From Escherichia coli (GTDB lineage: Bacteria > Pseudomonadota > Gammaproteobacteria > Enterobacterales > Enterobacteriaceae), in NCBI RefSeq assembly GCF_965641715.1, contig NZ_OZ282453.1: a stretch of 64,000 nt of DNA. The stretch is one strand, 5' to 3'. The position numbers were made by a program. The first letter of the stretch is position 1; every line of letters begins with the position of its first letter. Positions 20,501 to 23,500 of this stretch are shown here, piece by piece.

Positions 20501-23500
20501 ATGTGCAATTGATGAAGACAATAAAGATGCCACTGTTTATCAGTCAGGTCTGTATAACGTCATTGTTTATCATCACACAGGAAAAGTCGCCTTAATGAAA
20601 GAAGGCCAGTTTGTGGGTTATTTAAAATGAAGGAACAAAGGAAAATACCCCTGACGCATATTATGATTATCGGTGCGTTTATTTTTGCCTTCTTGCAAGT
20701 AGTATTATTAGCCTCCCTGGTTCACGCTGTGAATGTTAACAATGAAATCCAGGAAGGCTTATTTCAGTCGGGGCGCATTATGGTAGAAAGTTTGCAGCAT
20801 ATTCTTTCGGTGCAAACGGGAATTAACTGATTTTCACCCCGCCCGATGATGACAGCAGCCGGAGAGATTTTCGATAATCGGGCAGTCGGCGCTGTCATCA
20901 CCGGGGCAGGCATTCGCCAGCGCCAGTAGCTGGTTGCGCATAGATTGCAGTTCTTCGATATGCCGTTCGATCTCCGCCACCTTCTCCAGCGTACGACGTT
21001 TGACGTCGGCACTGTGACGCTGCGGGTCGTTAAACAGATTCACCAGCTCGCCGCTCTCTTCCAGGTTAAAGCCCACCTGGCGCGCCTGGCGCAATAAGGT
21101 CAATTCGTTGAGATGCTGCTGCGTGTAGGTTCGATAACCATTTTCGCTGCGCATCGGCGGCGTCACCAGCCCCTTCTCTTCATAGAAGCGAATGGCTTTG
21201 CTGGTCAGGCCGGTAATTTTTGCTACATCGCTAATGTTCATCGTTCGCGCAACGCCTCCTGTGCTTTGTTAAAGGGTTTCAACAGATAATCCAGCACGCT
21301 TTTTTTGCCGGTGCGGATATCGACCGTCGCCACCATACCGGGGAATATCGGAAACTGCTGTTTGCTTTTGTTTTCCAGATGGTTGCTGAAAGTGCGAATG
21401 TACACCCGATAGTAATAAACATCGCGCCGCACTTCATCCTGAACGGTATCCGGTGAAATCACCGCCACTTCCCCCGGCAGACCACCGTAGATGGAGTAAT
21501 CGTAGGCGGTTATTTTCACCAGCGATTTTTGCCCCGGATGGATAAACGCCACATCGCGCGGGGAGATTTTTGCCTCAATCAGCAGTTGCTCATCCAGCGG
21601 CACGATGGTCATCAGTTTACCACCGGGGGCAATGACGCCGCCAACTGTGGTGACGTCAATATCCTGAACAATGCCACGAACTGGCGCAGTAAAGTTGAGC
21701 CTGGTGAGGGAGTCTTCACGCCCACGGATCACCGAACGCTGGGTTTCCACTTCCGCATTGGCTTTCGCTAACTCTTCCCGCGCCTGAACGTAGTATTGCG
21801 TGCGCACGTCGCTGAGTTTGTTTTCCAGTTCATTGGCCTGGCGTTGCAGGCGCAGTACTTCGACGCTGCTCGCTGCCCCCTGTTTTACCAGCGGCTGGGT
21901 CATCGCCAGTTCGCGATTGACCAGACTGATCCCCTGCGTCAGCCCGGTGGTGGCTTTGTTCAACCCGTCGCGGCGAGTGTTGTACAACGCCGTTTCCGAC
22001 TCGATAAGTTCGGGGAATTTATTCAGTTCGTCAGGGAAGACCAGCGGTTTATTGCTCACTTCCGCCCGCAGCCGCGCCGAGGTTGCCAGCGCCGCGTACA
22101 GCCGCGACATCGCTTCCTGGACGTCGGATTCCGTTTTGGTGCGGTTAAGCTGCGCCAGCGGCTGGCCCTGTTCGACAATATCGCCAACTTTCACGTCGAG
22201 ATGATACAGAATTCCGCCTTCCAGCGACTGCACCACCTGTTCGCGCCCGGAGGGTTCTACCGTGCCGCTGCCGGTGGTGACTTCATCAAGCTGGAAGTAC
22301 CACGCCCAGCCGAGAAAGCAGAGCAGCATCACAGAGGTAACACGTACCGCCAGCGCCGAACGCGGCAGGCGGGGTTCAGTCAGGCCACGGTTATATTGCA
22401 GTTGTCCGTTCATGCGGCAGACCCCTTATTCTTCTCCTGCAACACCACCCGTCGCGCCGTGGGTTCGCCCTGTTCACGCAAAATGGCCTCTTTCGCGCCG
22501 TCCATCACAATCCGCCCCTGATCCATCACGATAATGCGGTCCACCAGTTGCAGCATCGCCGTGCGGTGGGTAGCGACGATCAGCGTGCGATGCCCAATCC
22601 ACTGTTTCAGTTGTTCGATTAAATGCGCTTCTGCCATTTCGTCCAGCGAGGCGCTGGGTTCGTCGAGCAGCACGATATTGGGTTGAGAGATAAGTAGCCG
22701 CGCCAGCAGCAGCGTTTGCCGCTGGCCACCAGAGAGGCCAAATCCTCCTTCCTGAATCATGTAGTTGAGACCGTTTTTCTGCTTCTGCACAAAGGGCAGC
22801 GCTCCGCTGAGGGTTAACGCGCGTTCGATATCTTCATCGCTGGCTTCCGGCATCCCCATGGTGAGGTTTTCCCGCAGCGAACCAAAGAACAGTCGCCCGG
22901 TCTGGCTGAGTAGCCCCATGTCTCGCCGCAGATCTGCCGGATCAAGCTGCCCGATACTGATGTTATCCAGCAACACCTGCCCCTGCTGGGCGATACGCAT
23001 TCCGGCGAGCATTTGCAGTAGCGTCGATTTACCCGCGCCGTTGCGCCCGAGAATGGCGATTTTCTCTCCGGCCTGAATGTGGAGTTTGCCGATCGCCACA
23101 TCGGCAATCTTCTCTTCTTCGTCGTAATAAAAGATAGCGTTGCTGAACTGATAATTACCGTGCAGCACCGCTTTATGCACCAGTTTGCCGTGTTCCGGCT
23201 GATCCACGGGGCGCTTCATCAGTTCATCAAGGCCGTTACGTGCTACTTTCGCCTGCTGCCAGCGCGAGAGCACGCCGGATATCTGCGACAGCGGCGCGAT
23301 GGTGCGCGAAGCCAGGATCGTCGTCCCGACCAGTGCGCCGGTGGTCATGTCGCCGTTCATCACCATAAAGCAGCCCACCAACAGCACCACGACGTAGACG
23401 ATGGATTGCACTTCCTGGGTCCAGGTGAGCAGTAGCCCGGTGAGAAAACGTTGCTTCATGCTGATGGACGAGGCCACGTCGTTGGTGTGATTCCACTGAT

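Follow-up and report, generated by a model that had tools for sequence, protein, structure and literature searches.

Introduction

The Escherichia coli reference genome holds 75 convergent gene pairs whose ends overlap (PMC4161906). A survey of RNA-seq data with ExcludonFinder lists 165 convergent excludons in strain MG1655, among them cueR-ybbJ, which was found in at least 50% of the 58 samples (PMC12288877). Bidirectional intrinsic terminators and collision-assisted termination have been described for convergent genes (bioRxiv 10.1101/2022.10.23.513370). A fourth body of work concerns O-island 29 of E. coli O157:H7 EDL933 (z0638, z0639/gmrA, and z0640), the genes of which are transcribed in O157:H7 in DMEM with RPKM values of 20–96 (PMC5826968, Table S3).

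The locus described here lies in a 64,000-nt stretch of an E. coli genome (contig NZ_OZ282453.1 of assembly GCF_965641715.1; the whole stretch is called the window), in which an islet with an adhesin gene meets cueR end to end (Table 1). The first-pass annotation of this DNA placed a 67-codon open reading frame (ORF67) and cueR 3 bp apart in convergent orientation, saw no space for a terminator between them, expected convergent transcripts to overlap or collide with potential antisense interference between the islet operon and cueR, and offered as an alternative that ORF67 is not real and that the islet ends after the lipoprotein gene.

Table 1. Features of the islet, the junction, and the neighboring operon (positions in the window).
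Feature	Position	Strand	Remarks
ybbJ (NfeD family)	17079–17537	+	last gene of qmcA-ybbJ; PF01957, 8e-13
REP/BIME-like palindromic elements	17535–17630		left islet edge; sequence read
120-aa ORF, Z0640 orthologue	17640–18002	−	weak MqsA-antitoxin-like HTH hint only
Trimeric autotransporter adhesin, 579 aa, Z0639 orthologue ("GmrA")	18368–20107	+	YadA anchor, PF03895, 1.2e-10; primer mapping
Lipoprotein, 140 aa, Z0638 orthologue	20208–20630	+	lipobox LLAGC; sequence and primer mapping
ORF67	20627–20830	+	67-aa single-pass membrane protein (predicted); last module gene; ATG overlaps lipoprotein stop (ATGA)
Weak hairpin	20790–20817		in ORF67 3′ coding region; UUUCU next on minus-strand RNA
ORF67-cueR spacer	20831–20833		TTT between both stop codons; direct sequence read
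cueR	20834–21241	−	135 aa, MerR-family Cu(I)-responsive regulator; start overlaps hlyD stop by 4 nt
15-nt inverted repeat	20842–20905		in cueR 3′ coding region; hairpin on both strands
Type I secretion adhesin operon	21238–46823	−	upstream of cueR, same strand
HlyD gene	21238–22413	−	type I secretion adhesin operon
ABC gene	22410–24572	−	type I secretion adhesin operon
6929-aa adhesin	24576–45365	−	type I secretion adhesin operon
TolC-like gene	45468–46823	−	type I secretion adhesin operon

Results

The Junction and the Islet

Direct reading of the sequence bears out the 3-bp gap: the TGA of ORF67 occupies 20828–20830 on the plus strand, and the cueR stop codon appears in reverse complement as the TCA at 20834–20836. 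The two genes are thus neighbors on opposite strands, arranged tail to tail as in a convergent excludon. The junction is not peculiar to the source strain; a spacer of 3 nt (TTT) or 4 nt (TTTT) separates ORF67 from cueR in O157:H7, E. marmotae, and other Escherichia lineages, the longer form being that of E. marmotae and other Escherichia lineages. It is real but ordinary, and statistically unremarkable as a class.

The minus-strand gene is assigned to cueR on the predicted features of its product, which has the MerR helix-turn-helix, the dimerisation helix, and the C-terminal motif of CueR (Pfam MerR_1, 3.5e-19; MerR-DNA-bind, 4.7e-17; CPGDDSADC present in the translation). The two cysteines of this motif in CueR are metal ligands. 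The protein equals the CueR of O157:H7 (WP_001026752.1), and PGAP gives the name cueR both there and in the near-identical strain TB06052. Structurally, cueR closes the type I secretion adhesin operon, to which it is joined via 4-nt overlaps.

At the left edge of the islet lie palindromes that we take, by the REP consensus, to be REP elements. Rfam models, applied at permissive thresholds to 15–26 kb, gave sub-threshold matches to the REP-derived naRNA4 at this edge only and nothing at the ORF67-cueR junction. From gene order and sequence, the islet is identified as O-island 29 of E. coli O157:H7. Its module has the 120-aa ORF on the minus strand and then, on the plus strand, the trimeric autotransporter, the lipoprotein, and ORF67. 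O157:H7 EDL933 carries these genes at the ybbJ/cueR site too, with their order unchanged, and positions 17400–21400 match the O157:H7 locus (L002) at ~90% identity over 78% of the length. All 18 tested cloning, verification, and qRT-PCR primers from the published work map onto that O157:H7 locus without mismatch, as do four deletion-primer arms from the same study (PMC5826968). Within the module, the autotransporter gene contains an internal repeat with 369-nt spacing, and the lipoprotein gene has a dN/dS of 0.06–0.11. The lipoprotein has no family in Pfam or NCBIfam (only sub-threshold TraV and XAC1346 matches), and a PDB sequence search returned nothing below E = 0.5; its AlphaFold2 model (mean pLDDT 72, good in the C-terminal beta domain only) had no match in the PDB by Foldseek at E ≤ 0.001 and gave no functional lead.

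ORF67 as the Last Gene of the Module

If ORF67 were a chance open frame, as the alternative in the first-pass annotation had it, the 200 bp between the lipoprotein gene and cueR would be non-coding 3′ UTR or terminator space. Several observations are compatible with this view: Pfam and NCBIfam searches assign ORF67 to no family, it carries no number in the original EDL933 annotation (PMC5826968 names z0638–z0640 only), and its family is tiny, a profile search of 1.8 billion representatives yielding 17 matches: 15 to short proteins or fragments from enterobacteria and two weak, multi-stretch ones in long proteins (1051 and 450 aa). The pattern of conservation, however, is that of a gene. The length of the reading frame is constant at 204 nt in E. 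coli, E. marmotae, and the further Escherichia lineages compared, and its dN/dS between lineages is 0.09–0.31 at a dS of 0.07–0.49, which resembles the adjacent genes. In the annotated frame pN/pS is 0.24 and there is no internal stop, whereas four of the five other frames of the region give 1.4–2.2; one antisense frame has a comparable value (0.27) but two stops. Over codons 15–67, third positions account for 19 of the 27 variable sites (p = 9e-5). Homologues with 42% and 34% identity are found in another enterobacterium and in Pseudocitrobacter, and a further one in the enterobacterial locus L023; these occur at other genomic sites, not only beside cueR, and the start codon overlaps the lipoprotein stop as ATGA in every case, homologues included. 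The predicted protein has a hydrophobic segment (Kyte-Doolittle 2.65) and an N-terminal cluster of K and R residues, and the terminator scan finds no site within the 200 bp in question. Several apparently divergent ORF67 homologues in the protein database are frameshifted reads or assemblies and not true variants.

A chance frame is accordingly very improbable, and at the level of comparative genomics this reading is already refuted. Because ORF67 is under purifying selection in exactly its frame and has homologues outside Escherichia, we judge it to be a real, probably translated gene encoding a predicted inner-membrane protein; the ATGA overlap suggests translational coupling to the lipoprotein gene. 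Of 5426 complete E. coli genomes, 1416 contain ORF67.

The cueR 3′ End in Relatives

In all relatives examined, sequence comparison points to the spacer-less, terminator-less end as an old property of cueR that the islet did not make. The downstream partner lies 0–4 nt away or overlaps cueR by 4 nt, and in islet-free genomes the gene that abuts or overlaps cueR is ybbJ. The 4-nt tail-to-tail overlap of cueR and ybbJ is present in Klebsiella, Enterobacter, Pseudescherichia, and the enterobacterial loci L015 and L023, and in each of the four cueR/ybbJ junctions that were read (L015, L020–L022) a palindromic CTAG or TTAA is common to both stops. In K-12 the gap between cueR and ybbJ is 0 nt; in strain 131, a third E. 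coli allele, cueR abuts an unrelated ORF, again with a gap of 0 nt. The 5426 complete E. coli genomes comprise 3205 junctions of the K-12 type, ~1414 of the ORF67 type, and 966 of the strain-131 type, counts that are approximate and sum to ~103% of genomes since BLAST joins nearby pieces. The ancestral origin of the spacer-less cueR end had escaped the first-pass annotation. An origin of the K-12 junction by deletion between a REP element and the cueR stop was considered and rejected, because at the 3′ end of ybbJ the 13 codons in question are present in full in K-12, as a divergent allele.

In Escherichia, the module sits exactly in the old tail-to-tail junction of ybbJ and cueR. Normally it has a terminator of its own: in L015 and L023, where it lies between fetA and qmcA and not beside cueR, it ends in an 8-bp GC-rich hairpin and then CUUUUU.

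These comparisons bear on the possibility that the junction is a selected excludon, in which the autotransporter module and cueR, including read-through from the 26-kb secretion operon, repress each other, so that two adhesins, or an adhesin and copper sensing, would be mutually exclusive in expression. Retention of a spacer of 3–4 nt among Escherichia lineages that have diverged to a dS of as much as 0.5 would fit such selection, as would the position of cueR at the end of the secretion operon, the loss of a terminator that the module has elsewhere, and the designation of cueR-ybbJ as an excludon in K-12 (PMC12288877). Simple inheritance, however, predicts a conserved junction equally well; the module is lost or absent in most E. 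coli genomes (3205 of 5426), the K-12 types have lost the secretion island too with no sign of compensation, and the three unrelated partners that abut cueR argue against a partner-specific function. We therefore hold selection for an excludon to be quite unlikely. Fainter still are the prospects of a selected switch at the terminator-less junction, by which read-through from the secretion operon with cueR and transcription of the autotransporter module would silence each other through polymerase collision and antisense RNA; if it were true, a cell would show one adhesin or the other, and adhesin choice would be coupled to how much copper sensor is present.

Termination and RNA Structure at the Junction

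The missing terminator reported by the first-pass annotation is confirmed: a simple scan for terminators returned nothing for the junction or its vicinity on either strand, and because 3 nt leaves no room, an intergenic terminator between ORF67 and cueR is not possible. Nor does a bidirectional intrinsic terminator, that is, a short-loop GC-rich hairpin with an A- and a U-tract, lie between the convergent genes. A promoter scan gave promoter-like sites no more numerous than in shuffles.

Termination could instead be efficient and local if hairpins in the coding sequences halt or stall polymerase within ~20–70 nt of the junction, in which case antisense overlap would be nearly absent and interference would not arise. 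For cueR transcripts the candidate hairpin is the weak one in ORF67, for plus-strand transcripts the inverted repeat in cueR. The 200–260 nt around the junction do have a more stable fold than shuffled sequences (z = −3.0 and −3.7), the inverted repeat forms hairpins of −22.8 and −33.9 kcal/mol (the latter on the plus strand), and UUUCU follows the minus-strand hairpin. Neither hairpin has a proper U-tract, however, and none lies behind the inverted repeat, which falls in codons of the conserved Cu-binding tail and may be a coding coincidence. The hairpin in ORF67 (−7.5 kcal/mol, 14-nt loop) does not stand out from shuffles, 36 of 200 of which fold equally well; as a terminator for cueR it is poor at best. 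The consensus terminator scan is empty here, and overlapping transcripts are reported at the equivalent K-12 junction (PMC12288877). Efficient local termination is thus unlikely, though the strong cueR hairpin and the weak ORF67 hairpin could make polymerase stop or pause near the junction and keep the overlap short.

Past the cueR stop, the minus-strand RNA is rich in C, poor in G, and rut-like in composition, with a C/G ratio of 1.75–1.83 over roughly its first 120 nt, composition being only a crude indicator of Rho sites. Past the ORF67 stop, the plus-strand RNA has a ratio of 0.8–1.0 and is strongly structured at first, after which the ratio is 1.2–1.4.

Discussion

We place a probability of about 0.6 on the joint reading that the four-gene O-island 29 adhesin module truly has its right-hand edge at the 3-bp junction and that transcripts from its two sides overlap there. 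Overlap or collision of the ORF67 and cueR transcripts is plausible and is supported indirectly, because the RNA-seq survey counts the equivalent cueR-ybbJ junction of K-12 (0 bp) among its convergent excludons; the accessible part of the supplement text to the K-12 3′-end data set (eLife 62438) has no entry for cueR or ybbJ. Polymerases from both sides would pass their own stop codons into the opposite gene and produce 3′-overlapping antisense RNAs, which would end by Rho acting on untranslated RNA, by head-on collision of polymerases, or by both. Since expression looks modest on both sides, any interference at the junction would probably be a by-product that is tolerated, not a tuned switch.

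The junction leaves the current understanding of convergent transcription unchanged, and its practical value is modest. One consequence concerns O-island 29, which gains a fourth, conserved gene that has been overlooked in the experimental literature on the islet. The published deletion of z0638 also takes out the start codon of ORF67, so ORF67 may play a part in phenotypes credited to z0638 or the island as a whole. The cueR 3′ end also amounts to a natural experiment, as it faces ybbJ, ORF67, or an unrelated ORF across E. coli lineages, and a comparison of these lineages could show how much weight the convergent partner has for transcript termination and for cueR expression. The locus further illustrates how, with stop-codon precision, an island can enter between two gene ends that overlap and lose its own terminator meanwhile.

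Among described systems, the short tail-to-tail overlaps, of which E. coli has 75 pairs, form the class to which the ancestral 4-nt overlap of cueR and ybbJ belongs, whereas ORF67 and cueR lie 3 nt apart and do not overlap (PMC4161906). With bidirectional terminators and collision-assisted termination the junction shares a short common end region, in which head-on encounters of polymerases are to be expected here too, but it lacks the hairpin flanked by A- and U-tracts (bioRxiv 10.1101/2022.10.23.513370). The islet of the window and its site are those of O-island 29 of EDL933. The published account counts three genes, leaving ORF67 unrecognized, and presents Z0639 as a DNA-binding activator, yet the protein carries a YadA membrane anchor in this analysis; the autotransporter has 338 aa there vs. 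579 aa in the window (PMC5826968). The K-12 cueR-ybbJ pair has the same cueR 3′ end, nearly identical over the first 45 nt, a convergent stop 0 nt away, no intergenic terminator, and a transcript overlap reported from RNA-seq (PMC12288877); in the window, by contrast, the partner is ORF67 instead of ybbJ, the spacer is 3 nt, the overlap would follow by analogy, and an intact type I secretion adhesin operon precedes cueR.

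The ORF67-cueR Junction

The region is matched in 5425 of 5426 complete E. coli genomes, which marks it as a segment of the E. coli chromosome. ORF67, a plus-strand ORF of 67 codons, is the last gene of an adhesin module and faces cueR across three bases. The first-pass annotation had described a convergent 3-bp junction without room for a terminator, and both points hold: the stop codons, TGA of ORF67 at 20828–20830 and that of cueR (TCA in plus-strand reading) at 20834–20836, can be read directly from the sequence, only TTT or TTTT separates ORF67 from cueR in the window and all Escherichia alleles, and a consensus scan around the window junction found no intrinsic terminator. 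A hairpin at 20790–20817, followed on the minus strand by UUUCU, has a 14-nt loop and a free energy of −7.5 kcal/mol that 36 of 200 shuffled sequences equal. Within the 3′ coding region of cueR, a 15-nt inverted repeat (20842–20856/20891–20905) gives strong predicted hairpins (−23 and −34 kcal/mol) with no U-tract behind them.

Features of the window around the junction and spans of the module at two non-Escherichia enterobacterial loci
Sequence	Feature	Coordinates	Strand
Window	qmcA	16165–17082	+
Window	ybbJ	17079–17537	+
Window	REP-like palindromes	about 17535–17630	
Window	120-aa ORF	17640–18002	−
Window	579-aa protein with YadA membrane anchor	18368–20107	+
Window	140-aa lipoprotein	20208–20630	+
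Window	ORF67 (67-aa ORF)	20627–20830	+
Window	TTT spacer	20831–20833	
Window	cueR	20834–21241	−
Window	HlyD-type adaptor	21238–22413	−
Window	ABC exporter	22410–24572	−
Window	6929-aa adhesin	24576–45365	−
Window	TolC-like protein	45468–46823	−
L015	Module	2138–4671	
L023	Module	1590–4207	

Coding Status and Relatives of ORF67

ORF67 is annotated by PGAP in near-identical and related genomes, which by itself is slight proof of a gene. Its length is 204 nt in every allele compared (window, O157:H7, E. marmotae and other Escherichia lineages), and relative to the window these alleles give dN/dS of 0.09–0.31 at dS of 0.07–0.49, the latter on a par with dS of the lipoprotein gene and cueR. For four divergent pairs taken together, the annotated frame has a pN/pS of 0.24 and zero internal stops, against 1.4–2.2 in four of the five remaining frames; the fifth, the antisense frame whose third positions coincide with those of ORF67, reaches 0.27 yet contains two stops. 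Third positions account for 19 of 27 variable sites in codons 15–67 (binomial p = 9e-5). The ORF67 start overlaps the lipoprotein stop as ATGA, as is typical of translationally coupled genes. In the product, an N-terminus rich in K/R precedes a single strongly hydrophobic stretch (Kyte-Doolittle 2.65 over 19 residues), and about 30 residues form the C-terminal tail; from the positive-inside rule, we infer a single-pass inner-membrane protein with a cytoplasmic N-terminus.

The lipoprotein as query retrieved relatives in other enterobacteria, and the L023 locus was reached by an ORF67 profile search. At L015/L016 and L023 the module comprises a 111-aa minus-strand ORF, a YadA-anchor protein, a lipoprotein and a 67/68-aa ORF, with the ATGA overlap kept; it lies between fetA and qmcA, away from cueR. 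Module and qmcA-ybbJ are thus swapped in order in L015 and L023 relative to Escherichia, the module standing on the opposite side of the pair. Pseudocitrobacter faecalis carries a lipoprotein and 64-aa ORF with the same overlap at an unrelated site. The small proteins of the L015/L016 enterobacterium and of Pseudocitrobacter show 42% and 34% identity to ORF67, respectively, and retain the hydrophobic core and a VHA(V/I) motif; at L023 the small ORF is intact despite a frameshift in the lipoprotein gene. The family has very few members (42 matches in one database, 17 in another) and is confined to Enterobacteriaceae, except for two weak multi-stretch matches in long proteins; no Pfam or NCBIfam model matches ORF67. 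The frame-specific purifying signal, fixed length and homologs elsewhere argue that ORF67 is a real gene, and we reject the alternative of a spurious ORF and an islet that ends with the lipoprotein gene.

At L015 and L023, an 8-bp GC-rich hairpin (−14.5 kcal/mol) followed by CUUUUU about 20 nt past the small-ORF stop reads as a canonical intrinsic terminator. The module thus appears to have its own terminator there and to be without one in Escherichia.

Published Genes of O-Island 29

The islet is O-island 29 (OI-29) of O157:H7: published primers (PMC5826968) map without mismatch to the O157 locus (L002), which matches z0638 to the lipoprotein gene, z0639 ("gmrA") to the YadA-anchor gene and z0640 to the 120-aa ORF. 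RPKM values for z0638/z0639/z0640 are 20, 96 and 44 in DMEM and 0 on HeLa cells (PMC5826968, Table S3), so plus-strand transcription extends at least as far as the gene that directly precedes ORF67. ORF67 adds a fourth conserved gene to the island.

Under the name GmrA, Z0639 was described as a transcriptional activator that has a DNA-binding domain (PMC5826968). The gene (L002 2546–3562) encodes a YadA membrane-anchor domain (PF03895, 1.2e-10) and, judged by eye alone, an apparent N-terminal signal peptide; its sequence suggests a trimeric autotransporter adhesin, with which the published function does not easily fit. The passenger contains a 152-nt direct repeat (18818–18969 and 19187–19338; 88% identity, spacing 369 nt), and protein length among strains ranges between 338 and 579 aa, a variation that such repeats, gained or lost, would probably explain.

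The z0638 deletion in print (L002 3647–4069; window 20208–20630) also takes out the ORF67 ATG because of the ATGA overlap. The one published for OI-29 (L002 1630–4272; window about 17529–20833) covers the final 9 nt of ybbJ and all that follows up to the cueR stop, so neither mutant is a knock-out of one gene alone.

The cueR 3′ End and Its Neighbors

In K-12 (J53), the cueR stop begins at the base following the ybbJ TAA (gap 0 nt). Strain 131 has other DNA at this site, an insert of about 830 bp between ybbJ and cueR, whose ORF (L004 1789–2467; frameshifted in that strain) likewise stops at a TAA directly against the cueR stop, again with 0 nt between them. A 4-nt overlap of cueR with ybbJ is present in Klebsiella, Enterobacter kobei, Pseudescherichia, L015 and L023, where cueR and copA are divergent, and in the four junctions read (L015 and L020–L022) a palindromic CTAG or TTAA is common to both stops. 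The K-12 junction occurs in about 3205 of 5426 complete E. coli genomes, the ORF67 junction in about 1414 and that of strain 131 in about 966, counts that sum to slightly over 100% because nearby BLAST pieces were joined. Across all compared junctions, the cueR side is almost identical over its first 45 nt, and homology ends at, or at most 5 nt from, the cueR stop. Comparison of these sequences indicates that the spacer-less end is a property of cueR and not a situation created by the islet, which appears to have inserted at a pre-existing, ancestral tail-to-tail overlap, one abutting partner replacing another.

In island-positive and strain-131-type alleles, and not in K-12, REP/BIME-like palindromes (17535–17630) come immediately after the ybbJ stop. 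Between the two allele types, the last 13 ybbJ codons show unusually high divergence (a hand count gives about 11 of 39 nt), the proteins ending in LIIRAVIA or LHIRAVSS; together these patterns suggest an old recombination boundary.

On its other side, cueR is structurally the last gene of a 26-kb type I secretion operon, joined by 4-nt overlaps. This giant adhesin locus (21238–46823) is apparently intact, with TolC-like, BapA/SiiE-like (6929 aa), ABC exporter and HlyD genes; an internal stop makes the adhesin gene of the closest complete genome a pseudogene. In K-12-type genomes, some 97 nt from the 3′ end of hlyD still adjoin cueR on its upstream side (L003 2047–2140; window 21242–21340). 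PGAP labels them a pseudogene remnant; they are a scar left by deletion of the type I secretion adhesin island, and where that island is present, any promoter for cueR only would thus lie within the coding end of hlyD.

Expected Transcripts and Published Convergent Pairs

From its stop codon on, each transcript would be untranslated and at once antisense to the opposite gene. For about 120 nt past the cueR stop, minus-strand RNA has a C/G ratio of 1.75–1.83 and is predicted to fold little, a profile that would suit Rho loading; plus-strand RNA past the ORF67 stop would form the strong cueR hairpin first (C/G 0.8–1.0) and then continue into a stretch with C/G 1.2–1.4. Given this antisense entry and composition, Rho- and/or collision-dependent 3′ ends would be expected tens to a few hundred nucleotides inside the opposite gene, leaving complementary 3′ tails, and read-through from the secretion operon would run into the islet in antisense. 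That the junction is a tuned regulatory switch is improbable, given that cueR accepts any of three unrelated partners and that the module is absent from most strains. The antisense interference proposed in the first-pass annotation is partly supported, its underlying observation being confirmed.

Published transcript data on the ORF67 form of the junction were not found. Overlapping convergent gene pairs number 75 in the E. coli reference genome (PMC4161906), and a 2025 RNA-seq survey lists 165 convergent excludons (neighboring genes with overlapping transcripts) in MG1655, defined by overlap in at least 50% of 58 samples, 141 of which were confirmed by nanopore reads (PMC12288877). The 165 include cueR-ybbJ (PMC12288877), so transcript overlap is already reported for the K-12 form of the junction; ORF67/cueR, likewise a convergent pair, has neither spacer nor recognizable terminator and is a candidate excludon.
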